From an uncultured Gammaproteobacteria bacterium (GTDB taxonomy: Bacteria; Patescibacteriota; Patescibacteriia; Magasanikbacterales; GWA2-37-8), in the NCBI GenBank assembly GCA_964641245.1, contig CAZXML010000002.1:10548-74547 (forward strand): a DNA stretch of 64,000 nucleotides, given 5' to 3'. A program made the position numbers and the translations under genes. This document shows positions 3,612-50,449 of the stretch, one piece after another. The notes beneath the pieces were generated by a model. That model was not told the DNA's origin. It saw only the letters and a list, made by a program, of their open reading frames with translations, and did not search any database. Position 1 is the stretch's first letter, and each line of letters begins with the position of its first letter.

Positions 3612-4511
3612 TCAAAGTTTTCCCGCTAAAGATATCCACTGTTCTACTGAAAGCTCTTGCGCTCTGGCTTTTTCATTTATTCCTAGTTCGTGAAATATGA
3701 TCGGTAATTTTTTCTTGTCTGTTAAGGCTCCCAAATTCTTAATCAACATTTTACGACGACTAGCAAACCCGGCCTTAACTATTTTGAAGAAAAAAGTCTG
3801 GTCAACACATTTGTCATCCTGAGTGTTAACGAAGGATCTCTGTCCGTTTGGTGATTGAGACAGAGATTCTTCACTTCGTTCAGAATGACAAACGGACGTC
3901 TTCAATCGCAATTTTATAATCGCTGAATCCACGCCCGGCACCGGCCAAAAATATGATTTGGGGACGTGCATGACAATTTCCGGATCCGCGTAACATTGTA
4001 CGGAAATAGCCAGCACCGACATATCCCCCGGTTTGGCGCAAATTCTTTCGGCCACTTCTTTTTGCACCATCAACACCATTAACTCCGGTTTGTGTTCAGC
4101 TTCTAAAAATTTTCGGATAACATTTGAGGTTATTTGATACGGCAGGTTGGCGATGACTTTATAATTGGAAATTGGAAATTGGAAATTAGGAAATTTAAGT
4201 ACATTCCCCCACACAATTTCTAAATTTCTTAATTTCCTATTTTCTATAATTTCATTCCAATATAATTCCAATTTTTTTTCAATTTCAAAAGACAATACTT
4301 TATTTACTTTTTCCGCCAACGCCAAAGTTAAAACTCCAAATCCCGGCCCTACTTCCACAATCACATCGTCCGGTCTAATTTCCGCCGCCTCCAACATTTT
4401 TTCTATCGGCTCCTCGTTAATTAAAAAATTCTGACCGTACTTTCGGGAAGGAGTAAGGCCGAATTTTTGACACAGATGCTGTAAGTAATTAACGTTGTAT
4501 AAAGAAGTCAT
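3612..4511 (-). CDS. rsmA: 16S rRNA (adenine1518/1519-N6)-dimethyltransferase RsmA/KsgA, with in-frame palindromic-element insertion
   Basis: GQNFL, VVEVGPGFG, NLPYQITS motifs; 27-aa insert SVCHSERSEESLSQSPNGQRSFVNTQDD encoded by repeat 3812-3890. Confidence 0.9.
   Translation of the reverse strand: MTSLYNVNYLQHLCQKFGLTPSRKYGQNFLINEEPIEKMLEAAEIRPDDVIVEVGPGFGVLTLALAEKVNKVLSFEIEKKLELYWNEIIENRKLRNLEIVWGNVLKFPNFQFPISNYKVIANLPYQITSNVIRKFLEAEHKPELMVLMVQKEVAERICAKPGDMSVLAISVQCYADPEIVMHVPKSYFWPVPGVDSAIIKLRLKTSVCHSERSEESLSQSPNGQRSFVNTQDDKCVDQTFFFKIVKAGFASRRKMLIKNLGALTDKKKLPIIFHELGINEKARAQELSVEQWISLAGKL
3812..3890. repeat. family B palindromic element (tgtcatcctga...ggatctctgtcc...gacagagattcttc...cagaatgaca) inside rsmA
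   Basis: direct reading; other copies 6477-6561, 16170-16247, 19839-19912, 29771-29853, 33247-33339, 34696-34789, 47745-47834, 50317-50394. Confidence 0.85.
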
Positions 4512-4518
4512 AAAAAAA

Positions 4519-4636
4519 TATAATCGCCTCCTCCCCTCTTTTAGGGGGAGGGCAGGGTGGGGGTATTGGTTGTCTGGTGTCCAGTGTCCGCGATAACCCC
4601 TCTCTCTGTCTCTCCCCTAAAAGGGGAGAGAATGAC
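4519..4636. repeat. family E GC-rich palindromic element (cctcccctNNNNggggagg ... ctctcccctaaaaggggagag)
   Basis: copies at 11786-11897 (inside O-antigen-ligase-like ORF) and 22534-22632. Confidence 0.8.
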
Positions 4637-5722
4637 TGAAGCCAGCCCCGCACTAGTGTATCTATTCGACGCATTCCACATCAGCCAACCGGCATCAGTG
4701 TATTTTTCTGTTTCATCTATCTGCGCTCTGATTTTTTCAGCATCATAAACCGCTCCCAGGTTAAACGCCTGAATCCACGGGCGTACTTTGGCGCGTTTAC
4801 CTTCAAATTTTGGCATTCCCATTTGCATACCGTTGGCAAACACTTTGGCCGGAAATTGAGCCGGATTTTTTAATCCTAAATGGCCGGGCGGATAATGCGA
4901 CGGATACATCATGGGCGAAATATAATCCGTTTCATCCACCGCGTCGGCAATCCTCTGCCCGATGCGCATATCATCCTCGCCTTTTTTTTCCATAACAAAA
5001 CCAAACATATCCAGCGATAACCAAACCGGCTCGTCGCTTAATTTAATATTTAAAAAATGATAAAACTGTTTCATTACCAGATACTTTTTTTCATTGCCGG
5101 CGGCATAAACCGCCTGAGACATATTTCCATCCGAAGGAAAACGAACATAATCAAAATTGATTTCATCAAAACCAAAAGCGATCGCTTCTTTGGCGATAGC
5201 CACATTATATGCCCAAACTTCTTTTTTACTCGGATCAACCCAGGCCAAACCTTTGTGATCTCTCCACAAACCGCCCGATTTATTTTTTATCGCCCATTCC
5301 GGTTTTTTTTCGGCCAGCGCCGGATCCTGAAATACCGTTTGGCGCGCGATTACATAAATATTTTTAGCGTGCAGTTTTTTTATCAAAGCCGCCACATCTC
5401 CCAAACGATTTTCGTCTGTTTTTAAATCATTCACTAATTTTAATTTGCTGTCATACAAAATTTTTCCGCTGTAATCTTTGATGTCTATTACCACCGCGTT
5501 CAATTCGGTTCTGTCTATCAAATCTATGATGGTGTCTATTTTTTTGGCGCTGCCGGCCGAATAGGCCGTGAGGTATAAGCCTTTAACTTTTATGAGTGTT
5601 GATTTTTCTATTCCCGACTTGAGCGGAATAGAGGTGGGTTGGCCTGTTATATCAACGCTGGAAGCTTCTATAGTCTGAACAGTTTCTGTCCAAGCCCACC
5701 AAATTAAAAACGAACAAAGCAA
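4541..5722 (-). CDS. putative TIM-barrel glycoside hydrolase-like protein (DUF4015/GHL-type), TTG start uncertain
   Basis: 393-aa ORF; FDYVRFP and NVAIAKEAIAFGFDEINFDY motifs reminiscent of DUF4015/GH114-like; C-terminus reads into GC-rich palindromic repeat 4519-4636. Confidence 0.4.
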   Translation of the reverse strand: MLCSFLIWWAWTETVQTIEASSVDITGQPTSIPLKSGIEKSTLIKVKGLYLTAYSAGSAKKIDTIIDLIDRTELNAVVIDIKDYSGKILYDSKLKLVNDLKTDENRLGDVAALIKKLHAKNIYVIARQTVFQDPALAEKKPEWAIKNKSGGLWRDHKGLAWVDPSKKEVWAYNVAIAKEAIAFGFDEINFDYVRFPSDGNMSQAVYAAGNEKKYLVMKQFYHFLNIKLSDEPVWLSLDMFGFVMEKKGEDDMRIGQRIADAVDETDYISPMMYPSHYPPGHLGLKNPAQFPAKVFANGMQMGMPKFEGKRAKVRPWIQAFNLGAVYDAEKIRAQIDETEKYTDAGWLMWNASNRYTSAGLASVILSPFRGETERGVIADTGHQTTNTPTLPSP

Positions 5723-5799: not shown

Positions 5800-6468
5800 T
5801 TAAATTATCTGAAGTTGTCCCTGGCGTAAAATTTTTAAATTATCAATCACGCTCACAATGGTGGTGGGCGGATTTTGGGGTAATATTCCCCCATCTATTA
5901 GTATATCAGGTTTTACATTAATTTTCTTGGAGTCATAGATATCGCCAGCATCGGCCAAGTTGGCTGAAGTAGCTACCACCGGTCTGTCTAATTTTTCCGA
6001 TAAAAATTTTGCTATTGGGTGATTGGTAACACGGACGGCAATTGTATTGTTTGCGGCGACTACGCCGGCTGCCAGGCTGTCATTGCGAGGAAGCCGATTC
6101 GCATCGGCTGACGTGGCAATCCCATTGTTTGCACTACCATCCAATGGGATTGCTTCGTCGCTTGTAGCTCCTCGCAATGACAAATACTCGCCAACTATTG
6201 TAAGCGCCCCAGGCCAATACTTACTTGCCAAATCTTCCAACAAATCGTTCCACAACAAATATTTTTTTGCCATTTCAATCGTGGGCACAACAACCAAAAG
6301 AGGCTTATCGCTTTTTCGCCCCTTAATTTCAAAAATTTTATTTACCGCGTTTTGATCGGTCGCATCACAACCCAAACCATAGGAAGTTTCGGTGGGAAAA
6401 ACGATAACCTTTCCTTCCTTCAGATATTCAACGGCAGTTGATAATTGTTTAGTGGTTATTATTTTCAT
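5800..6468 (-). CDS. tsaC: L-threonylcarbamoyladenylate synthase TsaC/YrdC, with in-frame palindromic-element insertion
   Basis: VFPTETSYGLGCDA, KGRKSDKPLLV, PGALT motifs; ~35-aa insert SLRGATSDEAIPLDGSANNGIATSADANRLPRNDS encoded by repeat 6078-6182; upstream ATG at 6549 lies inside repeat 6477-6561. Confidence 0.8.
   Translation of the reverse strand: MKIITTKQLSTAVEYLKEGKVIVFPTETSYGLGCDATDQNAVNKIFEIKGRKSDKPLLVVVPTIEMAKKYLLWNDLLEDLASKYWPGALTIVGEYLSLRGATSDEAIPLDGSANNGIATSADANRLPRNDSLAAGVVAANNTIAVRVTNHPIAKFLSEKLDRPVVATSANLADAGDIYDSKKINVKPDILIDGGILPQNPPTTIVSVIDNLKILRQGQLQII
6078..6182. repeat. family C palindromic element (tgtcattgcgagg...ggcaatcccattg...gggattgcttcg...ctcgcaatgaca) inside tsaC
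   Basis: other copies 10416-10503, 21735-21823, 45966-46054; partial 17871-17900. Confidence 0.85.
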
Positions 6469-6476
6469 ACTTTGAT

Positions 6477-6561
6477 TGTCATCCTGAATGCAATGAAGGA
6501 TCTCTGTCCGTATCGTTTTGGACAGCCAGACAGAGATTCTTCGCTTCACTCAGAATGACAG
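6477..6561. repeat. family B palindromic element
   Basis: see 3812-3890. Confidence 0.85.
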
Positions 6562-6581: not shown

Positions 6582-7694
6582 TTATTTCTTAATCCAACGC
6601 AAATACGCCTCACCGAGCGGCAACAAATTTCCTTCCAAAACACCTTCCGGATCCGTGGATTCGTATTCGGTGCGGTGATCTTTTACCAAATGATACGGAT
6701 GCAAAACATAAGAACGGATTTGATTGCCCCATTCCGCTGATTTATATTCCCCGCGCAATTCTTTTCTTTCCGCGGCTTTTTTTTCTTCTTCCAAACGGTG
6801 CAAGCGCGCTTTCAAAACTTTCATGGCCATGTCTTTATTTTGCTGTTGCGAGCGTTCGTTTTGGCATTGCACGGTAATGCCGGTGGGAATATGCACAATG
6901 CGCACGGCCGAATAAGTGGTGTTCACACTTTGCCCGCCGTGCCCGCCGGCCATAAAAGTGTCTATGCGGATATCTTTGGAATCAATTTCAATTTTTATTT
7001 CATCATTTATTTCCGGCAAAACTTCTATTAAAGCAAAAGAAGTATGACGCATTTTTTCCGCATCAAACGGCGAAATACGCACCAGGCGATGCACGCCGTG
7101 TTCGGATTTTAAATAACCAAAAGCAAAACGCCCTTTGACTTCAAACATAATGGATTTATAACCCGCTTCCGCCCCGCGCGATTCGTCTACCACTTTTGTT
7201 TTCCAACCCATTTTATCGCAATACCGCATTACCATCCGCAACAGCATTTCGGCCCAGTCTTGCGCTTCGGTACCACCACTGCCGGCGTGGATAGCAATGA
7301 TGGCATTATTTTTATCATACGGACCGTTTAACAAAACATACAATTCGTATTCGGAAAATTCTTTGGCAACTGTTTTGGTTTGCTGTTCTATTTCGCCGGA
7401 CAATGATTCATCCCCGGAACTTGCTTGCCCCGCCGTGGCGGTGGATAATTCAATTAAATCATTTGTTCTTTTTTCCAAATCCGCAAATTTTTCCACTTCT
7501 TTTTTTATATCCTGATAATCCTGGGAGGTAGCCTGCGCGTTTTCCTGATTACTCCAAAAATCCGGCGCGTTCATTTCTGCAGCCAGCTGTTCCGATTTTT
7601 TTTGCAATTCATCTATATTAAGAAGTTTTTTTGTTTCGGAAATTTTGGATTGCAGTTCTTTCAAATCTTCTAAAGACATACCCTTAATTGTCAT
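6582..7694 (-). CDS. prfB: peptide chain release factor 2
   Basis: 370-aa single ORF; SPF tripeptide (RISPFDA) and GGQ motif; no +1 frameshift site needed. Confidence 0.9.
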   Translation of the reverse strand: MTIKGMSLEDLKELQSKISETKKLLNIDELQKKSEQLAAEMNAPDFWSNQENAQATSQDYQDIKKEVEKFADLEKRTNDLIELSTATAGQASSGDESLSGEIEQQTKTVAKEFSEYELYVLLNGPYDKNNAIIAIHAGSGGTEAQDWAEMLLRMVMRYCDKMGWKTKVVDESRGAEAGYKSIMFEVKGRFAFGYLKSEHGVHRLVRISPFDAEKMRHTSFALIEVLPEINDEIKIEIDSKDIRIDTFMAGGHGGQSVNTTYSAVRIVHIPTGITVQCQNERSQQQNKDMAMKVLKARLHRLEEEKKAAERKELRGEYKSAEWGNQIRSYVLHPYHLVKDHRTEYESTDPEGVLEGNLLPLGEAYLRWIKK

Positions 7695-8023
7695 CCTGAA
7701 CTTGATTCAGGATCTGTCGCGATTGTTTCAGCATCTATCCACTCGCTGTACAGATCTTTTAGTTCTGGATTTAATTCTTTAATTAAATTTAGCTTCCAAT
7801 CTCTATGCCAATTCTTCAGCTGTTTCTCCCGTCTAATTGCATCATCAGGACGACTAAATGATTCATAATAAACTAATTTCTTTATTCTATACTTCTTGCT
7901 AAAACCACTATTAAGTTCATTTATATGCTCCCACATTCTTCGTTCCAGATTATTACTGACGCCAATATATAACGTCGTATTCGTATAGTTCGTAACTATA
8001 TAAACATAATAATTTTTTCTCAT
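7691..8023 (-). CDS. GIY-YIG nuclease family protein
   Basis: YVYIVTN...LYIGVSNNLERRMWEH, typical GIY-YIG/UPF0213; C-terminal codons read into repeat at 7691-7737. Confidence 0.75.
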   Translation of the reverse strand: MRKNYYVYIVTNYTNTTLYIGVSNNLERRMWEHINELNSGFSKKYRIKKLVYYESFSRPDDAIRREKQLKNWHRDWKLNLIKELNPELKDLYSEWIDAETIATDPESSSG

Positions 8024-8094
8024 AAGACACAGGCGCCGAATAGATCCTGAAACAAGTTCAGGATGACAGCCTCACCGAACAAACACATCCAAGA

Positions 8095-8586: not shown

Positions 8587-8658
8587 ACGTGGTTAATTCT
8601 ACTCTTAATCTTTGTATTTTACAACAAAGGACGCCCTTTGTAAGGGGCGTCATTTTAT

Positions 8659-8726
8659 TGTCATCCTGAACTTGTTTCAGGATCTGTTTGTGTACCGTTA
8701 GATGCTGAAACAAGTTCAGCATGACA
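8659..8726. repeat. family A double-hairpin element (tgtcatcctgaacttgtttcaggatc ... gatgctgaaacaagttcagcatgaca)
   Basis: copies 7691-7737 (partial), 12690-12757, 14863-14941, 17799-17877, 26943-27079 (composite), 46687-46753, 56113-56243 (composite). Confidence 0.85.
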
Positions 8727-8735
8727 CTTTGAAGT

Positions 8736-10388
<1,653 letters not shown>

Positions 10389-10415: not shown

Positions 10416-10503
10416 TGTCATTGCGAGGAGCCGTAGCGACGCGGCAATCCCATTGTCGGCACAACCAGTACTGTGGGATTGCTTCACTTCGTTCGCAATG
10501 ACA
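10416..10503. repeat. family C palindromic element between groES and groEL
   Basis: see 6078-6182. Confidence 0.85.
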
Positions 10504-10511: not shown

Positions 10512-10796
10512 CTACTCCACCACCGCCAAAATATCCTCCTGTGAAACAATTTTATATTCTTCTTTATCCAATTCTATTTTTTCTCCTCCCCAGTTTTTTA
10601 AAACCACATGATCGCCTACTTTTACTTCCATAGTCGCGCGCTCGCCGGATTTTAACATTTTTCCCGGACCAACCGCCACCACATCACCCTCGGGCTTTTT
10701 TTCATCTTTACCCGGCAAAACCAAACCAAACGAAGTTACCTCATCGGCCTTTGTCTGTTTTACCAAAACGTTGTCTCCTAATGGTCTAATATGCAT
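10512..10796 (-). CDS. groS: co-chaperonin GroES
   Basis: MHIRPLGDNVLVK...; ATG at 10796 preferred over TTG at 10814. Confidence 0.93.
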   Translation of the reverse strand: MHIRPLGDNVLVKQTKADEVTSFGLVLPGKDEKKPEGDVVAVGPGKMLKSGERATMEVKVGDHVVLKNWGGEKIELDKEEYKIVSQEDILAVVE

Positions 10797-10890
10797 ACAA
10801 AATTTAATTAACAATTAACAACTAACAATGAACAAACTAACACGGAACAGCGGGCAATTGTTAATTGCTAATTGTTAGTTGCTAGTTATT
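10797..10890. repeat. family H TTAATTGTTAA-type palindrome in groES 5' leader
   Basis: aattaacaattaacaactaacaatgaacaaac...ttgttaattgctaattgttagtt; related copies at 54807-54856 and within pheT 52845-52880. Confidence 0.6.
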
Positions 10891-11272: not shown

Positions 11273-12682
11273 TCAACTTTGCCTGTTTTGGTCAATAAAC
11301 CCAAGCCCAATAATAACCCACAAAAAAATTATTCCTGTGGACATACTGGCCAGCCAATGATCAAAAAGTCCGGCTACCAATAAAGCGGTTATTATGGGAA
11401 GAAATAAGAGATTGGTTTTATAGATTTTTATAAATAGATAAATGATAAATAATAAAAATAAAAATGCCGACAGAATACCAAACTCTACTATCGCTAACAA
11501 ATAAATATTATGAATCGGCTGATACTGCCAAGATGCCAACGTGGGATATTTTTTAAATGATGCGTAAGTATACGCGCCGGGGCCGATGCCAAAAATTGGA
11601 TTGGTTTGAATAAAAGACAGCGCCTCGGCGTACTGATCCTTTCTTTCGGAAATAGATTTTGCTTCCAGGCGGTTGTTTAGATTAAACCTGGCTGTAAATA
11701 CGGGATAAAAAATTATTAGCCAGAAAATAATTACCGCCAGAGCAAATAGGATTTGTTTGGTAAATTCTTTCAAGGCTGTCGTGGCATCGCGGCCTCCCTC
11801 CCCTTTTAGGGGAGGGGCGAGGGGTGGGGTATCCGTTCGGTTATCATTGTACGCCGAATACCCCTCTCTCTGTCTCTCCCCTAAAAGGGGAGAGAGCGAT
11901 TGATGATGGTGATGTTTAAAAAATATAATAGCAAACAGAGACGCCACGCCAACTGTCGCCGCCACCCACGCCCCGCGAGAAAAAGAAAGAAGCAATCCTG
12001 ATAAAATAAATAGCTGGCCCGCGCTGATTATTATTTTGCTCCGTCCCGATTCGGCTTTAAGATATAAAACCAAACCCAGCACAAATAAAACCGCCAAATA
12101 AATTCCCAACGAATTTGGCGAGCCAAAACTGCCATACGCCCGCAACCATCTTTGGTCGGCAAACTCTATTACGCTCGGACCCAAATTGTAAGCCTCCTGC
12201 CCGGCCATACCCAACCATTTGCTGGCCCAAACATTCTGATTTAAAAACTGCCAAATAGCCAGCACACCCTGCAAAATTCCACCCGCCCAAAGAGCAATTT
12301 GATATTTTGTCTTTTCATCCTGCCAAGCCAGAACGACCATTAAGGCCATTGCCTCCAGTAATTTAAAAATATAATTATACGAAACCCAAAAATTTTTACT
12401 TAACATCGTGGAAAAAAATACCGACATTAAAAACAGCATTAAAATTAAAATTGTTTGGTTCCTTTTTTCTTTTAGTCTTGTCCAAAAAGATTTATTAACA
12501 AAATGGTGGAAAAAAAACAAAAGTATAATCATCCACAGCAAAATTTCCGTACCATAAAGACTGGAGGTTCCGTACTCCCAAAATCCTTTATTTAATTCGC
12601 CGTATTGCCAAATATATCTGGTTTGCCATGGCAACAGAAACAGGAATAGCAACAATAACAAATTATATATTTTTTTCATCAT
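11273..12682 (-). CDS. O-antigen ligase (Wzy_C/WaaL)-like polytopic membrane protein with in-frame GC-rich element
   Basis: 469 aa, >10 TM helices, YGSFGSPNSLGIYL motif typical of O-antigen ligase family; residues ~255-300 (HHHHQSLSPLLGERQREG...PPLKGEGGRD) encoded by GC-rich palindrome 11786-11897. Confidence 0.6.
   Translation of the reverse strand: MMKKIYNLLLLLFLFLLPWQTRYIWQYGELNKGFWEYGTSSLYGTEILLWMIILLFFFHHFVNKSFWTRLKEKRNQTILILMLFLMSVFFSTMLSKNFWVSYNYIFKLLEAMALMVVLAWQDEKTKYQIALWAGGILQGVLAIWQFLNQNVWASKWLGMAGQEAYNLGPSVIEFADQRWLRAYGSFGSPNSLGIYLAVLFVLGLVLYLKAESGRSKIIISAGQLFILSGLLLSFSRGAWVAATVGVASLFAIIFFKHHHHQSLSPLLGERQREGYSAYNDNRTDTPPLAPPLKGEGGRDATTALKEFTKQILFALAVIIFWLIIFYPVFTARFNLNNRLEAKSISERKDQYAEALSFIQTNPIFGIGPGAYTYASFKKYPTLASWQYQPIHNIYLLAIVEFGILSAFLFLLFIIYLFIKIYKTNLLFLPIITALLVAGLFDHWLASMSTGIIFLWVIIGLGFIDQNRQS
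11786..11897. repeat. family E GC-rich palindromic element (in-frame in membrane protein gene)
   Basis: see 4519-4636. Confidence 0.8.
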
Positions 12683-12689: not shown

Positions 12690-12757
12690 TGTCATCCTGA
12701 ACTTGTTTCAGGATCTATTTTATTTTCTTGAGATGCTGAAACAAGTTCAGCATGACA
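12690..12757. repeat. family A element
   Basis: see 8659-8726. Confidence 0.85.
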
Positions 12758-40285: not shown

Positions 40286-40364
40286 ATACTTGGAACACTT
40301 TGGTCGAAGAACTTAAGTTATTAATCCATACCGTAAAAAAAACTAGTAACGCAGATAACTAAAT

Positions 40365-42656
40365 TCAAGAAACAAAAAGTTCATCAATACGCGAGACCTC
40401 ATTACTCTCTCTAAATTTATATTCTTCTTGTTGTATATCAGCTATCGCATCCTCCGCTCTAGCATTTTGTGAATTATCATCAGCAATTTCTTCTGCATTT
40501 ATTTCAAAAAGTTTTTCAAGCACTTTTAAATCATAGACACCAAATTCTTCGTTAAATTTTTCCGCATCATTATGAATATTATATACATGGTCTTTAATTT
40601 GTGAAGGTTTAAAAAGAGACCTTACTTCGCTCCCTTTAGAGGTAATTGCATCAATTCTAATTTGCCAGTAATAATCAAGGCTTTCCTCAACAACTTCTTG
40701 GCTGATCTCGTTAGAAATATATTGTTCGTAATCCTGGGAATAGGTTTCAAAAAGCTCTAGGACTCTTAATAATTCTTCCTCTTCATAAGCGTTTTGGAAC
40801 AACGTGTCAATAATATTACGCCAATTCTCTAGAATTGCATCTTTCAAAATACTAAAACCAGCAAATTCTTCGAGTAAATTAAGCAGGCTATGGGCTTGTG
40901 ATGAATTTACTTCATTTAATTTTATTTCTCTGAATATTTCAACAACATCTTTTTCGATTTTTGAAATATCAAAAAGCAGATAATAAAAATATATTATCTC
41001 AACTTCCTTTGATCCTCCTTTAATAATTTTAAGAGCACTCCGCTTTGCTTGTATTAATTGGTGCAAGCGATCAAGCTCGTTATCATCAAATACAATGCGT
41101 TTGCCAAATGATATGCCGAACCGTGTAGTTAATTGTTCGGTATAAATTGAAGATTCTAAAATTCTCCATTTCTCCCCAGGGTTTTTTAATAAGTAATTTA
41201 TAAAAAAATCTATAATTGATGGATTAAAAAAATCATAAGTGATAATTTGTCCATTATTTTTATGGATTATAAAACCCCTGGATAGCTCCTTTATTTTTAT
41301 ATGAAAAATACTGCTTTTTCTTTGAAAGCCATTTTTAATTTCATAACTAAGCCTAGACTCAAAAGCGTCCTGTAAATATTTTTCTTCAACAGTATCGAGG
41401 CTAAACAAAGTGCTGATTAAAAAACGTGCGTAATCATCAATTTGCTTCTCGTATGGATTTTCCCAAATTAGCGAGGGATCATCAAGGTTCTTCATTATAA
41501 AGGTCAGATACTCTGAATCCTTAACCCCTAAGAGTCGGAGTGGCTCAGTAATAAACTCAATTAAGCGCGGATTAAAATTTTTATGTTTTATTATTTTCCA
41601 GTAATTCTTTTTTTCAATTATTTTTTTAAGGTACCGCTCACTAAGTTTAGAAAAATATAAATGGTTATAAAGAATAAGCGCCCTATTCCATTCGCTGTAG
41701 TCATTTATATTAACCTCGTGTTTGGACAATTCGATTTTAGGATTTTGCAACTTAGAGAGATTCTGTGTTGCTTGGTTAAGGATGGTTGTTCTACTAGTGA
41801 GAATCAGCCTTTTCATCGGATCTTCTTTAACTCTTTCTATAAAATTAATAAGCGCAGAGTCGCTATTTTTTGGTTGTAAAATTTCAAAATAATTTGAACC
41901 TAAAAAATCATCGAAATAAAACACCTGCTTTTTACCCGGTTCCCATAATTTTTCGGCCTCACTAATTTTCTCATCCACACTAATCAATTGATATCCGCTG
42001 GCCAAGAGGTTGTAGGTAAGCATTCTTGCAAGAACAGTTTTACCGATACCTGGCTCCCCAATAATAACTAAAAAGCGTTTCTTATTTAAAATTCTCAATG
42101 CCTGATTAAATTTTTCATTCTGAACGTAGAGCGATATATTTTTTCTTATACTCTCAACGACAAATTCAGACCTTCCTTCAATACCATTATTGACTATCTT
42201 TTGTAAAATATTGACGCTAGAAAGCCAAAGTTTATGCCAGGACTTCTCAATTTTTGGAAATTTCCCCAATAAATTATTTAGATCATCTTTACCGTAAATA
42301 TCTGCTGGAAAACGGATGAATGGTTTAAAAATATTTAAAATAGTATCTTTATCACTTGGGCTCAATTCTACACTAGTCGTTAGAATATAACGGCTAGGAC
42401 TTAATTTTATTACTTTGGGCAACTCTTCCTTTCTCAATTTATTAATAAGCTGTTTCAGACCACTCTTCCGCCAATGTTTTGCTTGGATAATAATTTTATC
42501 TTTCGATTGAACAGGAGATATGTACCTCAAATCAATGCCTTGATCTCGGCCACGCTTGAAACTTTCAAGGGTTATTTTATGCTCAGCTTGAAGCAAGTCC
42601 CTGCTAAGATTTTCGAATTCCTTATCATTTAATGTTTCAAAACCATAATTGGGCAT
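40365..42656 (-). CDS. Mrr-like PD-(D/E)xK nuclease / STAND-type P-loop NTPase / C-terminal helical-repeat protein (Avs-like architecture)
   Basis: N-term FENLSRDLLQ...DQGIDLRY...IIIQAKHW (Mrr_cat E, D, QxK); Walker A IIGEPGIGKT; Walker B VFYFDDFLG; LILTSRTT sensor-like motif; ~400-aa helical C-terminus. Confidence 0.6.
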   Translation of the reverse strand: MPNYGFETLNDKEFENLSRDLLQAEHKITLESFKRGRDQGIDLRYISPVQSKDKIIIQAKHWRKSGLKQLINKLRKEELPKVIKLSPSRYILTTSVELSPSDKDTILNIFKPFIRFPADIYGKDDLNNLLGKFPKIEKSWHKLWLSSVNILQKIVNNGIEGRSEFVVESIRKNISLYVQNEKFNQALRILNKKRFLVIIGEPGIGKTVLARMLTYNLLASGYQLISVDEKISEAEKLWEPGKKQVFYFDDFLGSNYFEILQPKNSDSALINFIERVKEDPMKRLILTSRTTILNQATQNLSKLQNPKIELSKHEVNINDYSEWNRALILYNHLYFSKLSERYLKKIIEKKNYWKIIKHKNFNPRLIEFITEPLRLLGVKDSEYLTFIMKNLDDPSLIWENPYEKQIDDYARFLISTLFSLDTVEEKYLQDAFESRLSYEIKNGFQRKSSIFHIKIKELSRGFIIHKNNGQIITYDFFNPSIIDFFINYLLKNPGEKWRILESSIYTEQLTTRFGISFGKRIVFDDNELDRLHQLIQAKRSALKIIKGGSKEVEIIYFYYLLFDISKIEKDVVEIFREIKLNEVNSSQAHSLLNLLEEFAGFSILKDAILENWRNIIDTLFQNAYEEEELLRVLELFETYSQDYEQYISNEISQEVVEESLDYYWQIRIDAITSKGSEVRSLFKPSQIKDHVYNIHNDAEKFNEEFGVYDLKVLEKLFEINAEEIADDNSQNARAEDAIADIQQEEYKFRESNEVSRIDELFVS

Positions 42657-42669
42657 ATGCGCAAATAAA

Positions 42670-44472
42670 TTAATCTAGTTTGTCAATAAGTTTTTCCAAT
42701 TCAACAATATCTTTCCATTGATAACAGTTACTTGGAGGATCTACGTTAAAATCAAGCAACGAATCAAGCAAACTCTCAATAACCAAAAACTTTTCCTCGT
42801 CTTCCATAATTGTAACCAGCGCGGTGTAAGGCTTCTCTTTTTTAAATGCTTCTCCAAAATAGGCTTCTTCAAAATTTGGAACTGAAGCTAGCAAACGAAC
42901 ATTTGCAGGAAACTTATGCGCGAGCGTTATATCTAATATGTCTTTATTTTTTGACCAGGCCGGGTTAGCTATAAATGACCTGTCTTTTTTTTCGACTTTC
43001 GGCCTATCACTATCATGTAAAATAGAGTAAGGCGCGCCGAAATGATTAAGAATTTTTGCAACCGAAACTATAGTGGCTTTACCGCGAGCCCTGATAATAT
43101 GAATATTGCTATACTTTTCTGGATTTTTTGCAATTATATATTTAAAAACGGTGTACTCAGTATCACCCTCAACAACTACAACTTTCCCGCCAAAAAAGAA
43201 TTCTGCCACATAAGGATCCCAGATATTCATTAATTTTAATAATTTCTTATCATCTTGTTCCAATCCAACTTTTTCTGGCCTAAAAATCGTTGTTCCTTTT
43301 ATGTCACCAGAAGAATTTTTTTCGACCCTAATAATGGTGGTATTGTCTCTTGAAACATCAATAAAATTAGGCGAGTGAGTTGTAATCATGACCTGCCAGT
43401 TTGAGCTTGGCAGTCCATATAATAAATTACATGCATGGCGTATTGCATCGGGGTGCAAACAAATTTCAGGCTCATCGAGCAAAAGAACATGCGATCTGGT
43501 TACCTCTCCATCCTTGTCTTTCTTTGTTTTTGATTCAGAGATAATTTGCAATGCCGTCCATAATAATGTCCTACGAGCCCCGCTACCTTGCGCCTCAATT
43601 GTTCCAAGATACCCACCAGTTGGACCCATCAAAAGTTGTGGGCTGTTTTTAAAAAGTGATATGGCTTTATCTGGATCGTCTTCTGGTTTAGCATTAAACC
43701 GGACTTGATAATTTGGGAAAACTTTTCCGATCAAATTTGTAAGCTCATCTTGAACTTTATCTATTTCAGTTTGTGACTCTAGTACAATTTTTTTTTGGAG
43801 ACTTTTAACTTGGCTCAACAGAATCCCATAATCTGATCCTTCCTCTTCCTTTTTCAAATCCTTTATTCTATTAGTAAGCACTGAGGATAAAAGTTTTGTT
43901 ATTTCTTCTGCCTGATCTTCGGGTAAATCAAATGCCCCAATCCTATGCGGTTGAGGTCTGCGGGAATTCGCCACACCGGGCGCACCCCACGGAACTTTCT
44001 CATCCCAACCACCATTTACATTAAGCCCCTGACGTTTAGGGTCTCCTGGCTGTGCCCAACACCATCGCTCAATAACAATTTTTTCTTTGCCAATTTCGTG
44101 TATCCATTCTTGTCCAGGAAAATTATTATATACTATTGTATGTAAGACGATTTCAGGCAAATTATTTTCATCGATCCTACCATTAGGAAAATCCTGAATC
44201 ATCAATTTACCGTCTGCCGATCCCTGCGACATAACTATTTCATACGCACGAAGAATGGAACTTTTCCCTACATTATTTGGTCCTACCAAAACAACAATAT
44301 CATCTAGCTCAATCTCAACGGGGTTAGCACCTATACAACGAAAATTTTTGATACTTAGTTTTTGTAAGCGTTGACGACCTTCAGCTACAAGCTCTAAAGC
44401 CAATTTTCTTTCTATAGGCACAGGCAATTTTGGCATAAATTTAATGCATTTATTAAACTTAAAGCTTATCAT
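42670..44472 (-). CDS. OLD-family/GajA-like nuclease: ABC-type ATPase + C-terminal Toprim
   Basis: Walker A GPNNVGKSS, Walker B/D-loop LLLDEPEICLHPD, H-loop ITTHSP, Toprim VVVVEGDTEYTVF and ILHDSD. Confidence 0.75.
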   Translation of the reverse strand: MISFKFNKCIKFMPKLPVPIERKLALELVAEGRQRLQKLSIKNFRCIGANPVEIELDDIVVLVGPNNVGKSSILRAYEIVMSQGSADGKLMIQDFPNGRIDENNLPEIVLHTIVYNNFPGQEWIHEIGKEKIVIERWCWAQPGDPKRQGLNVNGGWDEKVPWGAPGVANSRRPQPHRIGAFDLPEDQAEEITKLLSSVLTNRIKDLKKEEEGSDYGILLSQVKSLQKKIVLESQTEIDKVQDELTNLIGKVFPNYQVRFNAKPEDDPDKAISLFKNSPQLLMGPTGGYLGTIEAQGSGARRTLLWTALQIISESKTKKDKDGEVTRSHVLLLDEPEICLHPDAIRHACNLLYGLPSSNWQVMITTHSPNFIDVSRDNTTIIRVEKNSSGDIKGTTIFRPEKVGLEQDDKKLLKLMNIWDPYVAEFFFGGKVVVVEGDTEYTVFKYIIAKNPEKYSNIHIIRARGKATIVSVAKILNHFGAPYSILHDSDRPKVEKKDRSFIANPAWSKNKDILDITLAHKFPANVRLLASVPNFEEAYFGEAFKKEKPYTALVTIMEDEEKFLVIESLLDSLLDFNVDPPSNCYQWKDIVELEKLIDKLD

Positions 44473-44504
44473 TTGACTAATACAAAGTCAAAACAAGCAA
44501 AGCA

Positions 44505-44610
44505 CCGCCCAAACCAAACACCAAAAAACACCCTTTCGGATGTCTTTTGCGTGATCTGCCAAGTCCAACCCCTCTCGGTCACTTGAACCTGTACAGCAGT
44601 GTAGTCCCAA
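44505..44610. repeat. ~100-bp direct repeat copy B abutting tRNA-Glu 3' end
   Basis: cccaaaccaaacaccaaaaaacaccctttcggatgtcttttgcg...ccctctcggtcacttgaacctgtacagcag shared with copy A. Confidence 0.7.
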
Positions 44611-45585: not shown

Positions 45586-46683
45586 ATGTTAATTCTCGGC
45601 ATTGAATCTTCCTGCGACGATACTTCTGTGGCCTTACTAGATATTTCCGAAAAAGGCGCGGCTATTTTATTTGAAAAAACCGCTTCGCAAATTGAAATCC
45701 ATAAAAAATACGGCGGTGTGGTGCCGGAAATTGCCGGCCGGATGCACGCGGAAAAAATTGTGCCGCTTATAGACGCGGCGCTAAATGGAAGAATGATTAA
45801 GAAATTAGGAAATAAAGAAATTAAACCAGATGTGATTGCCGTAACCGCCGGACCGGGATTAATTACCGGGCTTTTAGTAGGGGTAGAAGCGGCGCGCGCT
45901 TTATCGTATGCATGGGATATTCCACTAATAAGAACAAACCACATAGAAGGACACGTCTATTCTGTTGTCATTGCGAGCCACAGCGAAGCAATCCCAAATA
46001 CTGATAGTTCTGACAATGGGATTGCCGCGTCGCTTAAAGCTCCTCGCAATGACATACAGTTCCCGGCCTTATGCCTAATCGTCAGCGGCGGGCATACGGA
46101 ATTAATTTTGATGAAAAACCACGGAAAGTATAAATTACTGGGCGCGACCAAAGACGACGCGGCGGGAGAATGTTTTGATAAGGCGGCAAAATTACTGGGG
46201 CTTCCCTATCCGGGCGGACCGCAAATTTCTAAACTGTCCGAAACCGGAAACCCGGCCGCGATAAAATTCCCCCGGCCGATGATGGCCGATGAAAATTATT
46301 TATTTAGTTTCGCCGGATTAAAAACTTCCGCTTTGTATTGGTTGCGCGACAATAAATTGAAAAATATTAACGACTTTTGCGCCAGTTTTGAACAGGCAAT
46401 TGTAGATGTTTTGGTGGCCAAAACTATTAAAGCCTCCATTCAATACAAACCAAAAACTATTATTTTAGCCGGCGGGGTTAGCGCCAACAAAAAACTTCGC
46501 CAAACATTAGGCGAAGTCATAGGCGCTAAATTTCCCGAAGTGAATTTTATGGCCCCGCAGACAAAGTATTCCATGGACAACGCCGCCATGATTGCCATGG
46601 CCGGATATTATCACGCCTTAAAAAAAGATTTTACTTCCTGGAAAAAAATCCAAGCCGACCCGAACTGGGAACTTGCTGAATAG
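45586..46683 (+). CDS. tsaD: tRNA N6-adenosine threonylcarbamoyltransferase TsaD, with in-frame palindromic-element insertion
   Basis: LGIESSCDDTSVAL, HxEGH metal site (NHIEGH), GGVSAN; ~30-aa insert VIASHSEAIPNTDSSDNGIAASLKAPRNDI from repeat 45966-46054. Confidence 0.9.
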   Translation: MLILGIESSCDDTSVALLDISEKGAAILFEKTASQIEIHKKYGGVVPEIAGRMHAEKIVPLIDAALNGRMIKKLGNKEIKPDVIAVTAGPGLITGLLVGVEAARALSYAWDIPLIRTNHIEGHVYSVVIASHSEAIPNTDSSDNGIAASLKAPRNDIQFPALCLIVSGGHTELILMKNHGKYKLLGATKDDAAGECFDKAAKLLGLPYPGGPQISKLSETGNPAAIKFPRPMMADENYLFSFAGLKTSALYWLRDNKLKNINDFCASFEQAIVDVLVAKTIKASIQYKPKTIILAGGVSANKKLRQTLGEVIGAKFPEVNFMAPQTKYSMDNAAMIAMAGYYHALKKDFTSWKKIQADPNWELAE

Positions 46684-46686: not shown

Positions 46687-46753
46687 TGTCATGCTGAATT
46701 TATTTCAGCATCTCTGTCCACCGATTAGATCCTGAAACTAGTTCAGGATGACA
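46687..46753. repeat. family A element overlapping dnaE stop codon
   Basis: see 8659-8726. Confidence 0.85.
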
Positions 46754-49700
46754 GTTGACAAATCCTTTTTCAACTCATCTGAAATATTTACCGTATACGA
46801 AGTTTTTATAATTTTTCCTCCCACATTTAACACCACCGGTTTATCTCCGGGGTATTTTTTTAAAATACTTTTTATGGCATCGGCTTTGGTTTTTACCTGA
46901 TCCGCGCTGACAACAATTTCAAAATTTTCGTCCGCTTCTTGAACCGGTTTAGCAACGGAACGACTCTGGCTAAAAGCCATTTGTTTTGCCAATGCAGGAG
47001 CATTTTCTTTTGTCAGCAAATAAGCTTTTTCTACAAACAATTTATCATCCCCTTCTTCTTCGGAAGTCCGTCCGATTACACAAACCGGTTTTCCTTCCAC
47101 CCAAACATCGGCGGTGGTTTCATAAGTTTTAGGAAAAATTAACAACTCCAAACTGCTGGTGGTATCCAATAATTTTGCGAACATCATGGCTTTGCCGCCG
47201 CGGGTTATTTTTTTCTTGGTGGAGTCTATCATACCACCCACCACCACCCACTGATTTCTGGTTTGCGCGGACAAATCTTTAAGCGGGGTTAAGACATCTT
47301 TCATTATATTCTGATAATAGGTAAAGGGATGCGAAGTAACATAAAGGCCAAGCAACTCTTTTTCCCACAAAAGTTTTTCTTCTTCACCGGCATTGGGCGC
47401 GGGGGCCAATTGAATTTTGGTGGACATGTCTATGTTGGTGCCGGCAAACAAAGAATTTTGATTTAATGATTTTTTTTCGTGAATTTGTTTAACATACGCC
47501 AGAATATTTTCTATATTGCCGGCCAGATAACCGCGATCCAGGCCAAAAGAATCCAGCGCCCCGCATTTTATTAAACTGTCCAATGATTTTTTATTCAAAT
47601 CTTTATCCGTCACTCTGGTTAATAAATCCTGCAGGTCTTTAAATTTCCCGTTGGCTTTTCGTTCGCGATAAATTGCCTCGGCAATGTGTTCGCCAAGATT
47701 TTTTATGCCGTTAAGGCCGAAGCGGATGTGTGGGGCGACTTTACTGTCATTCTGAGCAGAGCGAAGAATCTCTGTCTGGTTGTCGACGGTACGAGACAGA
47801 GATCCCTCGTCGCTACGGCTCGCTCGGGATGACAATTGCGCTTCATCATCTAATGGAGAAATCATTGCAAAATTTTTGAAGCTTTCGTTTATATCCGGCG
47901 GTAAAACCCGTACACCCATTCTTTCCGCTTCGTAAATAACTTCCGGAACCTTATCTATATCCCCGCTCTCGGCAATTAAAATAGCCGTCATATATTGCAC
48001 GGGAAAATTCGCTTTTAAATAAGCGGTTTGATAAGCCACCACCGCGTAACTGGACGCGTGGGCTTTGTTGAAACCGTAACCCTGAAACGGCTCAAATAAC
48101 TGCCATATTTCCTCCGCTTTTTCTTTGGTCAGGCCACCGTGCTTTTGGCATCCACTAACGAAAATAATGTGCTGTTTAGCCATTTCTTCCGGAATTTTTT
48201 TACCCACGGCTTTTCTGAATTTATCAACCTCTTCCCAGTTGTAACCGGCAACTTCAATAGCGGTCATTAAAAGATCATCCTGATATACAAGTACTCCGAA
48301 AGTTGTATCTAAAAAATTCTTCATCTTTGGGTGCATGTAAACAGCCGGCTTCCGACCATGCTTGCGCGCAATGTACTCGTCAATGTTATCCATTGGCCCG
48401 GGACGAAAAAGCGCAATCATCACCATAATATCAAAAATTGTCGATGGTACTAACTCTTTTAAATATCTGGTCATGCCTGAACTGGAAAGCTGAAACACGC
48501 CCACGGTTTCTCCGCGCGCCAACATCTCATAGGTTTTTTTATCATTCCACGGATACAAACCGTACACATTTATTTTCTGTCCGGTGGTTTTTTCTATAAT
48601 TTCTACCGCATGCCCCAAAATAGCCAGGTTGCGGATACCAAGAAAATCCATTTTTAAAACTCCGGCTGTTTCTACCGAATGCATTTCGTATTGAGTAATA
48701 ACGCGTTCGCCGCCAGTTTCCAGCTGAACGGGAGTAAAATCCGTAAGCGGGGTGGGAGAAATAACCACTCCGGCCGCGTGGATAGAGGTGTGGCGGGCGC
48801 AGCCTTCCACTTTTTGCGCCAAATCCAGCAAACGGTGGGCGTCCGCATTTTTTTCGTATAATTTTTTTAGTTCCGGTTCCAGGTTTAGGGCTTTAGCAAT
48901 TGTCATTTGAAAACCTTGCGCGCCGAATGGAATCAGTTTGGAAATTTGGTCGCAAAAAGAATAAGGAAAACCCAGCGCCCGGCCCACATCGCGTACCGCT
49001 CCGCGCGCCGCCATGGTACCAAAAGTAATAATCTGCGCCACTTTATCGGCGCCGTATTTTTTAGTAACATAGGCAATCATTTCGTCGCGCTTGTCATCGG
49101 CAAAATCGCCGTCAATATCCGGCGGGCTGGGGCGGAAAGGATTTAAAAATCTTTCAAACGGCAATTTAAAAAATAACGGATTGTCCATTACAATTCCCAT
49201 GGCAAAAGAAACTACCGAACCGGCGGCCGAACCTCTGGTGGTAACCATAATATCGTGAGTGCGGGCGTAACCCATATAATCAGCTACGGTTAAAAAATAC
49301 GGCGAATAGCCTTTAGTGGCAATAATATCCAATTCATAATCCACGCGTTTTTTTACTTCATCGGTCATTTCTATTAACTTTGGTAATTTTTCATAAACCT
49401 GTTCACGCAAATACTGGTTGGCGGTTTTTCCTTCCGGAATATCTATAGCCGGAAAATGCCACTTGTTAAGTTCCAAAACCAAGTTCACACGTTCGGCAAT
49501 TTTTACCGTGTTTTCCAGCGCTTCGGGAACATGTTTAAAACGGCCGATAATTTCTTGAGGCGGAGCCAAAGAAAGATCAATCGCGCTCATGGACAACCGG
49601 TTTTCTTCGTCCAATGTTCGGCCGTCTCTGATGCAGGTTAAAATATCTTGCGCTTCGGCATCGCTTGATTCCAAATAATGCGAATCGCGGGTGACAATTA

Positions 49701-50301
49701 ACGGTATGCCGGTTTCTTTAGACAGTTGAACAAGTTTGGTATTCAACTCCATTTGCCCTTCCATGGCCGGCAAATCCATCATCTCCAAATAAAAATTTCC
49801 CGCGCCGAAAATATCTTGATACTCCAACGCCACCTTTTTGGCTTTCTCAAAATTATCTTCCTTGTGTAAAATCCAGGGAATCTCCCCACTCAAACAGGCG
49901 GATGACGCAATCAGGCCTTCATGATACTTTTTTAACAGTTCTTTATCCATTCTGGGCTTGTAATAAAACCCTTCCAGGTTCGCCAGCGAAGATAGTTTCA
50001 TTAAATTTTTATAACCGGCATAATTTTCCGCCAACAGAATCAGGTGATAATACCGGTCGTCTTTATCTTTATCAAAACGGCTGCCCGGCGCCAAATACGC
50101 CTCCATACCGATAATGGGTTTTATTCCCTCTTTTAGACAGCATTCGTAAAACTCAATAGCGCCGTACATGTTTCCATGATCGGTAAGAGCCAGAGCTTTG
50201 TAGCCCATGCTTTTAGCTTTTTTTACCAGCTCCGGAATTTTAGGCAGACCATCCAAAAGCGAATAATGCGAGTGAACGTGTAAGTGAACGAAGTCGGACA
50301 T
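46738..50301 (-). CDS. dnaE: DNA polymerase III alpha subunit DnaE, with in-frame palindromic-element insertion
   Basis: PHP domain HLHVHSHYSLLDG, polymerase core, OB fold; insert SSRASRSDEGSLSRTVDNQTEILRSAQNDSKVAP from repeat 47745-47834; ATG 50301 preferred, since the upstream extension is repeat 50317-50394. Confidence 0.93.
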   Translation of the reverse strand: MSDFVHLHVHSHYSLLDGLPKIPELVKKAKSMGYKALALTDHGNMYGAIEFYECCLKEGIKPIIGMEAYLAPGSRFDKDKDDRYYHLILLAENYAGYKNLMKLSSLANLEGFYYKPRMDKELLKKYHEGLIASSACLSGEIPWILHKEDNFEKAKKVALEYQDIFGAGNFYLEMMDLPAMEGQMELNTKLVQLSKETGIPLIVTRDSHYLESSDAEAQDILTCIRDGRTLDEENRLSMSAIDLSLAPPQEIIGRFKHVPEALENTVKIAERVNLVLELNKWHFPAIDIPEGKTANQYLREQVYEKLPKLIEMTDEVKKRVDYELDIIATKGYSPYFLTVADYMGYARTHDIMVTTRGSAAGSVVSFAMGIVMDNPLFFKLPFERFLNPFRPSPPDIDGDFADDKRDEMIAYVTKKYGADKVAQIITFGTMAARGAVRDVGRALGFPYSFCDQISKLIPFGAQGFQMTIAKALNLEPELKKLYEKNADAHRLLDLAQKVEGCARHTSIHAAGVVISPTPLTDFTPVQLETGGERVITQYEMHSVETAGVLKMDFLGIRNLAILGHAVEIIEKTTGQKINVYGLYPWNDKKTYEMLARGETVGVFQLSSSGMTRYLKELVPSTIFDIMVMIALFRPGPMDNIDEYIARKHGRKPAVYMHPKMKNFLDTTFGVLVYQDDLLMTAIEVAGYNWEEVDKFRKAVGKKIPEEMAKQHIIFVSGCQKHGGLTKEKAEEIWQLFEPFQGYGFNKAHASSYAVVAYQTAYLKANFPVQYMTAILIAESGDIDKVPEVIYEAERMGVRVLPPDINESFKNFAMISPLDDEAQLSSRASRSDEGSLSRTVDNQTEILRSAQNDSKVAPHIRFGLNGIKNLGEHIAEAIYRERKANGKFKDLQDLLTRVTDKDLNKKSLDSLIKCGALDSFGLDRGYLAGNIENILAYVKQIHEKKSLNQNSLFAGTNIDMSTKIQLAPAPNAGEEEKLLWEKELLGLYVTSHPFTYYQNIMKDVLTPLKDLSAQTRNQWVVVGGMIDSTKKKITRGGKAMMFAKLLDTTSSLELLIFPKTYETTADVWVEGKPVCVIGRTSEEEGDDKLFVEKAYLLTKENAPALAKQMAFSQSRSVAKPVQEADENFEIVVSADQVKTKADAIKSILKKYPGDKPVVLNVGGKIIKTSYTVNISDELKKDLSTVILN

Positions 50302-50449
50302 AGTAGTATTTTTCGCTGTCATCCTGAACGCAGTGAAGGATCTCTGTCTCAATTACTGACCGGACAGAGATTCTTCGCTTTGCTCAGAATGACAGTTTGT
50401 GAGCAACTTAACTCGCCTATCGTACCTGAAAACACAAACTTAATCAAAC

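Follow-up and report, generated by a model that had tools for sequence, protein, structure and literature searches.

How can short palindromic repeats lie in frame inside essential genes and leave the reading frames open, and what brought them there? The question is raised by a 64-kb stretch of DNA (hereafter the window) that belongs to a metagenome-assembled genome of the Patescibacteria (Parcubacteria-like; Candidate Phyla Radiation, CPR; JGI sample 3300010391, with a copy in NCBI). The palindromic elements that repeat searches and self-BLAST identified in the window number about 28 and belong to at least five families; 11 of them lie within continuous open reading frames (ORFs), namely those of rsmA, tsaC, a Wzy-like gene, orf12692, leuS (two), truB (three), tsaD and dnaE, and five more provide genes with their C-termini and stop codons. 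We consider it likely that these elements are TGTC/CGTC-tagged REP hairpins that spread in this Parcubacteria lineage with an Ssn-like nuclease as probable partner, and that the copies found in genes are survivors in permissive loops.

Tagged hairpin elements within and at the ends of genes

Repeat searches and ORF translations bore out the original prediction, which named all of these genes except orf12692, that copies are embedded in them (Table 1): every host ORF is continuous through its element, and the 11 intragenic copies code for 26-38 amino acids each. Alignments with solved-structure orthologues (from E. coli, Thermus, Bacillus, Thermotoga and archaea), and with closer relatives where compared, also agree with the claim that conserved host motifs resume on both sides of segments that the orthologues lack. 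In TsaD, RsmA, TsaC, LeuRS, DnaE and TruB, the repeat-coded residues are unmatched and the sequences on both sides are aligned; the unmatched residues are 129-155 in TsaD, 205-237 in RsmA, 119-153 in TsaC, 233-263 (orthologue +21) and 870-895 (+11) in LeuRS and 831-872 (+40) in DnaE, while TruB shows three gaps. Among the closer relatives, both leuS inserts are missing in L082, L083 and L084, whose LeuRS proteins are 67-81% identical to that of the window, all three truB inserts are missing in L084 and L088, and the dnaE insert is missing in L164. The TsaD of P0125/L162 (81% identical) possesses an eight-residue loop, ELQEKKSP, versus 29 element-coded residues in the window. The comEC/methyltransferase junction is empty in L082 and L086 and the tsaD/dnaE junction in L163 and L164; the nusA/yidC junction of L082 is short (about 30 nt) and looks empty, in a region where the two-sequence alignment is poor. 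L082 in turn carries a family B copy, 89% identical to that in rsmA, at a site that is empty in the window.

Elements also form the ends of genes. The last residues and the stop codons of the DUF4015 gene, orf12692, comEC, the GIY-YIG gene and dnaE are element-coded (VILN plus the stop in dnaE), as had been noticed earlier for the GIY-YIG gene, comEC and dnaE. The annotated start of dnaE was likewise said to run into an element; it does, but the true start, an ATG at 50301, lies outside, and in both tsaC and dnaE the long N-terminal 'starts' arise because the ORF finder reads on through intergenic elements that lie upstream.

The families differ in sequence and share a common design. Family A consists of modules of the form TGTC-ATCCTGAA-CTTGT-TTCAGGAT-CT, family B of arms of the form TGTCAT[TC]CTGA[GA]C…GAAG[AG]ATCTCTGTC, family C of TGTCATTGCGAGGAGC…GGCAATCCCATTG, family E of CCCCT…AGGGG hairpins and family G of double hairpins (TGTCCCGATT…), while family F is found in the window as one nested copy only. 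The arms of A, B, C and F all start with TGTC (CGTC in one case), an unpaired tag that is followed by AT, and most copies are inverted dimers with the tags at their outer ends. Family A arms have an 8-bp stem that begins A-T, T-A (…CTGAA/TTCAG…) and a 5-nt loop (CTTGT or TTTAT); F arms have an 8-bp stem and a 4-nt loop; B arms, 31 nt long, fold into 5 bp, a tandem G.A, 2 bp and a triloop; and C arms are irregular with a large structured loop. All six short A dimers join a C-type arm (ATCCTGAA) with a G-type arm (ATGCTGAA), each compensated internally, and nearly all B dimers join an ATCCT…AGGAT arm with an ATTCT…AGAAT arm. Every B arm scored (13/13) is paired at positions 3-19, 8-14 and 9-13, with changes on both sides. 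As far as sequence comparison can tell, the compensated A arms and the both-sided changes in B are evidence that the hairpin is the unit under selection. Under strict criteria, tagged palindromes number 10 in the window, against one in 1.17 Mb of LeuRS-related loci and not a single one in any of 20 shuffles, an excess far above chance, and the folding z-scores of whole elements, which are long hairpins, range from -3.8 to -10. No direct target-site duplication was found in the 12-nt flanks of 22 copies; the relatives, at 77-92% protein identity, are too diverged for the exact insertion junctions to be defined.

The further claim of the original prediction that the elements are selected to be translatable is not supported by the frames themselves, and its question of whether every copy is stop-free in one frame is answered in the negative. 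Over 25 copies, 46 of 150 frames are open, compared with 32 in shuffles and about 51 in random genomic segments of equal lengths, and five intergenic copies are closed in all six frames. The intragenic copies average about three open frames, and open frames in such copies are expected from survivorship. One and the same family is read in different frames depending on the host (VIAS... in tsaD and leuS, LSLRG... in tsaC and CHCEE... in a TsaD homologue). Although the coding fraction of the window is about 0.91, only about 40% of the copies are in coding sequence, so that intergenic DNA is over-represented about twelve-fold per nucleotide. In related genomes, C-type elements occupy LeuRS site 1 in L089 and LeuRS site 2 in L095, a B-type fragment lies at LeuRS site 1 in L092, and the DnaE site of L163 holds an E-like element. 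TsaD homologues, which vary in length from 315 to 431 amino acids and of which 66 of 120 carry at least 12 extra residues, have insertion hot spots after core positions 70, 128 and 239. The same loops have been struck independently by different families in related genomes, and the data fit a survivorship filter, not elements built for translation.

The suggestion that inserts sit in surface loops agrees with the structural model of TsaD. In this AlphaFold model (mean pLDDT 89.8), insert residues 132-153, between helix 119-128 and strand 161-166, have pLDDT values below 50 and no secondary structure, and the insert is predicted to be a disordered surface loop that leaves the remaining fold intact. 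We infer that the inserts are translated into protein, and a candidate junction-spanning peptide of the TsaD insert is …GHVYSVVIASHSEAIPN…. A search across proteins with a 61-aa concatenation of element-coded peptides gave nothing useful, and a phmmer search of a 33-aa element-coded peptide against 1.8 billion representatives found no match at E<=0.001, such peptides being too short for searches of this kind.

The tsaD insert is common to the window, L163 (an ENA scaffold) and L164 (NCBI GCA_041643055.1), which are independent assemblies from other samples, and is absent in L162. Among the first three, divergence of the host gene tsaD amounts to about 20% over all nucleotides and to about 39% at third codon positions, whereas the arms of the insert show only 0-4 differences in 72 nt and 0-2 in their 24 third positions; in the central 18 nt of the element, 7-9 positions differ. 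The leuS C arm of the same genome matches the tsaD arm at 37 of 41 nt only. The orthologous tsaD arms are thus closer to each other than paralogous arms are within one genome, which speaks against within-genome homogenisation. Judging from this single insert, the tsaD arms seem to be constrained at the nucleotide level, possibly as hairpins that are still recognised.

A GIY-YIG nuclease gene between hairpins and the spread of the elements

A putative partner of the elements is encoded in the window itself. PF01541 is the sole domain (E=9e-17) of this 110-aa GIY-YIG protein, whose AlphaFold2 model (pLDDT 86) has the GIY-YIG fold with UPF0213, Slx1 and UvrC-N as the nearest solved folds in the PDB; a profile search of the PDB returned only UPF0213 structures (E=3e-4). 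The original prediction had noted correctly that the end of this gene touches an element. The fuller picture is that of a gene with a family A hairpin on both sides: one lies about 20 nt 5' of the start, and the second, inverted, includes the last nine codons and the stop, which is the layout of the Ssn/SRM systems (Chenal et al., 2025, Nat Commun 16:2388, PMC11893778). The resulting cassette is 380 bp long, its terminal inverted repeats match at 23 of 24 nt, and it is the sole long element that shares the terminal repeats.

The same arrangement is found well beyond the window. Among 1449 GIY-YIG homologues (E<=1e-10), many end in DPETSSG or DAETSSA directly before the stop, which is the hairpin translated. 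At 80 homologous loci of species-representative genomes (Patescibacteria, Melainabacteria, Bacteroidota, Proteobacteria, Nitrospirota and other phyla), a hairpin is present within 200 nt upstream in 68, downstream in 65 and on both sides in 57, forward when upstream and reverse when downstream; the chance of finding one in a 200-nt flank is about 2%, as estimated from hairpin density. In hairpins chosen by a pattern that leaves the tested stem positions free, these positions covary: of 73 unique sequences, 63 have a pair at position 3, where 32 would be expected and none of 500 shuffles exceeded 45. Across phyla, identity among the GIY-YIG proteins is 55-68%. SsnA of N. meningitidis, like three homologues, is a site-specific nuclease of single-stranded DNA (ssDNA); these enzymes bind the flanking NTS/SRM hairpin and cut upstream of it, and the IS-like NTS-ssnA-NTS layout and its parallel to RAYT/REP have been pointed out (Chenal et al., 2025). 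The published SRM motif, searched as HGTCWYN(0-2)YYVSBRHN(0-5)WNVSBRGN(0-2)RNCYNB, is matched in the window by the F arm at 56145, TGTCATTCCCGCAAAAGCGGGAATCCAG, which is also close to the Neisseria NTS consensus. In layout, the GIY-YIG gene and its flanking A hairpins have the Ssn-type architecture.

We propose that the elements are TGTC/CGTC-tagged and REP-type, of the superfamily that includes Neisseria dRS3/NTS, Ssn-related motifs and R. conorii RPE-4 and RPE-6, and that their inverted dimers would have multiplied within this Parcubacteria lineage. The probable partner would be the GIY-YIG nuclease, a family whose characterised members bind an ssDNA hairpin and cut just upstream of it, and new copies would arrive without target-site duplication. 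Copies in genes would persist only where the frame is kept, no stop is introduced and the site is a permissive surface loop or a gene end, and these survivors would be translated as 25-40 unstructured residues or as new C-termini. Mobilisation by the Ssn-like nuclease, and the transposition mechanism as a whole, are what this arrangement suggests. Copies of the window families are few in close relatives, which indicates, on the scale of these genomes, a recent expansion, and the elements amount to a lineage-specific burst in a CPR host.

Several observations weigh against this proposal. The SRM motif matches one arm in the window (F), versus 0.12 per shuffle; A, B and C fit its flanks (TGTCAT … ATCT) and not its GC-rich stem, and the motif is unusable for counting the window elements because only one arm matches. 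Families E and G are without a clean TGTC tag on one or both arms (one E arm starts with AGTC, and G arms start with TGTCC), and they may be unrelated palindromes. The isolated half-arms of B and C are thermodynamically weak. In tsaD and at leuS site 1, 8-16 residues of the native loop (ELQEKKSP in TsaD and PLRMIPGQADDKHSVT in LeuRS) seem to have given way to the family C element, which a pure insertion model does not account for; a small deletion may accompany insertion. A passenger that is merely tolerated would not be expected to have arms as nearly invariant as those in tsaD. Finally, Ssn proteins have been shown to cleave ssDNA only, with no transposition demonstrated.

This last point also favours a different source of mobility, in which another enzyme, or recombination and gene conversion alone, spreads the elements and the GIY-YIG gene is merely a frequent neighbour or target. 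Di Nocera et al. (2013, PMC3733652) found no transposase with CGTC-tagged REPs, and of 64 IMG/VR viral-contig stretches (L165-L228) with an exact copy of the 25-nt A hairpin, GTCATSCTGAACTTGTTTCAGSATC, only one (L227) also encodes a GIY-YIG homologue. Such an explanation is nevertheless doubtful in view of the 57 of 80 loci with hairpins on both sides, in fixed orientation, with covarying stems and in many phyla, against a chance of about 2% per flank; moreover, neither a Y1/RAYT nor a DDE transposase is among the annotated ORFs of the window. It is also conceivable that the intragenic arms are kept for a DNA-level function of the host, for example as Ssn target marks that limit the replacement of essential genes via ComEC uptake, as with NTS in Neisseria transformation. 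The tsaD arms diverge far less than the third codon positions of their host gene, the leuS paralogue comparison speaks against homogenisation as the cause, comEC is present in the window, and SsnA/NTS modulates transformation in N. meningitidis (PMC11893778). One orthologous insert is the basis of this idea, however, and close relatives thrive without the inserts, different families and frames occupy the same loops, as neutral tolerance predicts, and NTS repeats are seldom intragenic in Neisseria (2% in N. meningitidis; PMC11893778). We regard a DNA-level function as unlikely. Equally speculative is a combined scheme in which the Ssn-type GIY-YIG nuclease mobilises TGTC hairpin dimers as a GIY-YIG counterpart of RAYT/REPIN that is currently active in a CPR lineage, and the intragenic arms are held as functional ssDNA targets that, for instance, mark essential genes against replacement by ComEC-imported DNA, with the peptide loops as a by-product; we would not expect it to hold.

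Explanations that need no mobile element fare much worse. Lineage-specific extensions are frequent in CPR proteins, as in the TsaD homologues above, and the segments could be native loops or low-complexity regions, but copies of one 70-110-nt sequence, 85-95% identical, are found in unrelated genes as well as between genes, they are palindromic, and relatives with 67-92% identity in the host proteins or their neighbours lack them, which makes a native origin extremely improbable. Repeats are known to cause misassembly, and this is a metagenome assembly in which they might have been misjoined into genes. All host ORFs are nevertheless in frame with conserved motifs on both sides, and the occurrence of the same tsaD insert in two independent assemblies rules out an artefact there; for the inserts at large, misassembly is hardly credible. 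CPR rRNA genes carry insertions, and the inserts might by analogy be removed, intron-like or intein-like, before the proteins function. At gathering score, an Rfam scan matched only two tRNAs and no self-splicing intron family (two weak sub-threshold matches fell on the tested region), and inserts of 25-38 amino acids are too short for an intein (at least about 130 amino acids) and have no consistent nucleophile or terminal Asn; removal is very improbable. A self-splicing intron or intein was accordingly rejected on the Rfam result and insert size, as was a miniature inverted-repeat transposable element derived from an insertion sequence (IS): the 22 copies have no target duplication, and no parent IS of the DDE type was found in the window, the GIY-YIG cassette being the sole long element with shared terminal repeats.

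Catalogue of elements and other features of the window

Table 1. Tagged and other palindromic elements of the window, with the host and neighbouring genes (identities from NCBIfam/Pfam where so marked). Element coordinates are given without strand except for the two hairpins that flank the GIY-YIG gene.
Position	Strand	Feature	Context
3612-4511	-	RsmA (NCBIfam/Pfam)	host gene
3812-3890		family B dimer	in-frame in rsmA, residues 208-234; linker between methyltransferase and C-terminal domains
4522-4637		family E	gives DUF4015 gene its C-terminal ~30 residues and stop
5800-6549	-	TsaC (NCBIfam/Pfam)	host gene
6078-6182		family C dimer	in-frame in tsaC, residues 123-158
6477-6560		family B dimer	intergenic, upstream of true tsaC start (ATG at 6468)
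7689-7715	+	family A hairpin, TGTC-ATCCTGAA-CTTGA-TTCAGGAT-CT	at 3' end of GIY-YIG gene
7691-8023	-	GIY-YIG nuclease gene, 110 aa, Ssn-like	single domain
8042-8068	-	family A hairpin	at 5' end of GIY-YIG gene
8659-8726		family A heterodimer (ATCC / ATGC stems)	intergenic
10416-10503		family C dimer	intergenic, groES-groEL
11273-12682	-	Wzy_C/O-antigen-ligase-like (NCBIfam/Pfam)	host gene
11789-11901		family E	in-frame in Wzy_C/O-antigen-ligase-like gene, residues 262-299 (repeat search, ORF continuity, folding)
12690-12757		family A heterodimer	gives orf12692 its C-terminus (…CHAELVSASQENKIDPETSSG) and stop
12887-12951		family G-like	in-frame in orf12692
14862-14941		family A heterodimer	between nusA and yidC
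16170-16247		family B heterodimer	intergenic, MBL gene-nusA
17798-17898		family A heterodimer and family C end fragment	C-terminus of comEC
17811-19391		ComEC (NCBIfam/Pfam)	
19381-22521	-	LeuRS (NCBIfam/Pfam)	host gene
19839-19912		family B dimer	in-frame in leuS, residues 870-895 (site 2)
21735-21823		family C dimer	in-frame in leuS, residues 233-263 (site 1), entry to editing domain
22532-22638		family E	intergenic, upstream of leuS
26577-27560	+	TruB (NCBIfam/Pfam)	host gene
26655-26757		single-copy palindrome	in truB, site 1
26943-27078		family A dimer, nested 69-nt repeat within left hairpin loop	in-frame in truB, site 2
27272-27382		family G	in-frame in truB, site 3
27986-28056		family G	intergenic
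28142-29731		RNase Y (NCBIfam/Pfam)	
29771-29853		family B heterodimer	intergenic, downstream of rny
33247-33339		family B dimer, right arm interrupted	intergenic
34696-34779		family B heterodimer	intergenic
45586-46683	+	TsaD (NCBIfam/Pfam)	host gene
45966-46054		family C dimer	in-frame in tsaD, residues 127-157
46687-46753		family A heterodimer	between convergent tsaD and dnaE; gives dnaE last four codons and stop
46738-50352	-	DnaE (NCBIfam/Pfam)	host gene
47745-47834		family B dimer	in-frame in dnaE, residues 840-870
50317-50394		family B heterodimer	intergenic, upstream of true dnaE start (ATG at 50301)
56112-56243		family A heterodimer with nested family F dimer (56145-56211)	

The region of one family A dimer, 8653-8757, has a sub-threshold Rfam match to Aggregatibacter small RNA 41 (RF02901; 30.6 bits versus a gathering score of 97, E=7e-5), which was treated as not significant; that Rfam family may itself hold a CGTC-type REP dimer. 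Another class of intergenic palindromes, with units of about 7-nt periodicity (TAATTGT and GAAATTA types), is found at 10791-10880, 23400-23470, 52828-52880 and 54792-54869, and repeats with such 7-nt units probably encode the 'KLQITNYQLPITN'-like inserts of some TsaD homologues. A repeat of about 80 nt (…GAGCGAACGAGAATATATGG.TTACCTATA) lies directly upstream of yidC (14026-14105) and rny (28129-28205), is also found upstream of leuS in L082 (4540-4690) and has a nested copy at 26960-27030 in the truB family A element; it may serve as a promoter or leader motif, or may represent a further mobile family. A 123-nt direct repeat (58678-58800 and 62446-62568; 85% identical, 3.8 kb apart) overlaps the 3' parts of minus-strand ORFs and is not related to the tagged elements.

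LeuRS has, in addition to its two element-coded segments, an internal insertion of about 200 amino acids (residues 385-592; 20746-21369, minus strand) with a HAD-like hydrolase domain (PF13419 HAD_2, E=4.5e-9, FDFDGVL motif), at a position where E. coli LeuRS passes directly from residue 382 to 391; related LeuRS proteins range from 780 to 1337 amino acids. A second small nuclease gene, at 56873-57286, encodes a PD-(D/E)XK_3 protein (PF13366) and has 41-nt inverted repeats on either side (56828-56868 and 57292-57332; 88% complementary, with CGAAATA-like heptamers), and the locus 56828-57332 is a further cassette with a nuclease between inverted repeats. The region 36141-44604 is a defence island of low GC content (0.34-0.39) that encodes a SocA/Panacea helix-turn-helix antitoxin, an MmeI-like type IIL restriction-modification enzyme, an Mrr-nSTAND3 NTPase and an OLD-family nuclease. 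The latter two are enclosed by 97-nt direct repeats (40177-40273 and 44508-44604; 85% identical) that adjoin tRNA-Glu, and the whole looks like an integrated island.

Relation to known repeat systems

The in-frame colonisation of essential genes known from Rickettsia palindromic elements (RPEs) is extended here to the CPR, and one locus joins RPEs, CGTC-tagged REPs and Ssn ssDNA nucleases with their hairpins. For annotation, the elements account for many odd length differences and low-complexity loops in CPR core proteins, and many annotated gene ends are wrong because they run into elements. The repeatedly struck loops provide a natural map of where LeuRS, DnaE, TsaD and TruB permit insertions, and the near-invariant tsaD arms provide a testable hint that the hairpins are still 'seen' at the DNA level.

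RPE-1 of Rickettsia, reportedly described by Ogata and colleagues in 2000, is said to be palindromic, to lie in frame in conserved genes and to be about 100-150 bp long. The window elements resemble it as palindromic repeats that lie in frame in conserved genes of a bacterium with a reduced genome and are tolerated as extra surface peptide segments, but RPE-1 is longer (about 100-150 bp) and belongs to another phylum and lifestyle. The parallel to RPEs drawn by the original prediction proves apt for a further reason, as the TGTC/CGTC tag and hairpin are those of the superfamily to which R. conorii RPE-4 and RPE-6 belong (PMC3733652); it is this shared tag that makes the link to RPEs. Because tag, hairpin and heterodimer features are shared with the CGTC-tagged REPs, RPE-4 and RPE-6 included, the resemblance very probably reflects homology at the superfamily level, beyond analogy.

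CGTC-tagged REPs are defined by a CGTC or TGTC tag, an 8-9-bp stem, a 4-5-nt loop and a tail, and form inverted dimers that are often heterodimers; the superfamily takes in Neisseria dRS3 as well as R. conorii RPE-4 and RPE-6, and in-frame intragenic dimers that code for 20-30 amino acids have been reported, including in DNA-metabolism genes (Di Nocera, De Gregorio and Rocco, 2013, BMC Genomics 14:522, PMC3733652). Families A and F of the window have such a tag, stem (8 bp, A-T/T-A start) and loop (4-5 nt), and the window copies are mostly inverted dimers, often heterodimers, with in-frame intragenic members. In contrast, the Patescibacteria are not among the five phyla of that study, the stems of A are AT-richer, B has a tandem G.A and a triloop and C a large structured loop, and a far higher share of the window copies is in essential genes.

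With the Ssn/SRM systems (Chenal et al., 2025), the window shares a single-domain GIY-YIG protein of about 100 amino acids with its own tagged hairpin on both sides, dispersed hairpins, and an F arm that fits the SRM motif and resembles the NTS consensus. Families A, B and C, however, are outside the degenerate SRM motif, and about 40% of the copies are intragenic versus 2% of NTS in N. meningitidis. REPIN-RAYT systems (Nunvar, 2010; Bertels and Rainey, 2011; Ton-Hoang, 2012) are alike in their inverted dimers of tagged hairpins, the small nuclease gene between hairpins and the lack of target duplication, and unlike in their tag (GTAG versus TGTC/CGTC) and, as far as the annotated ORFs of the window show, in their associated enzyme (Y1/HUH transposase versus GIY-YIG nuclease).

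Full-text literature searches found no paper on such elements in CPR/Patescibacteria. Each of the components is already known, namely in-frame RPEs (2000), CGTC-tagged REPs with intragenic copies (2013) and Ssn nucleases with their hairpins (2025); what is new is the host phylum, hairpin variants outside the SRM motif, the unusually high intragenic load in translation and replication genes, and the hint of a DNA-level constraint on the arms.

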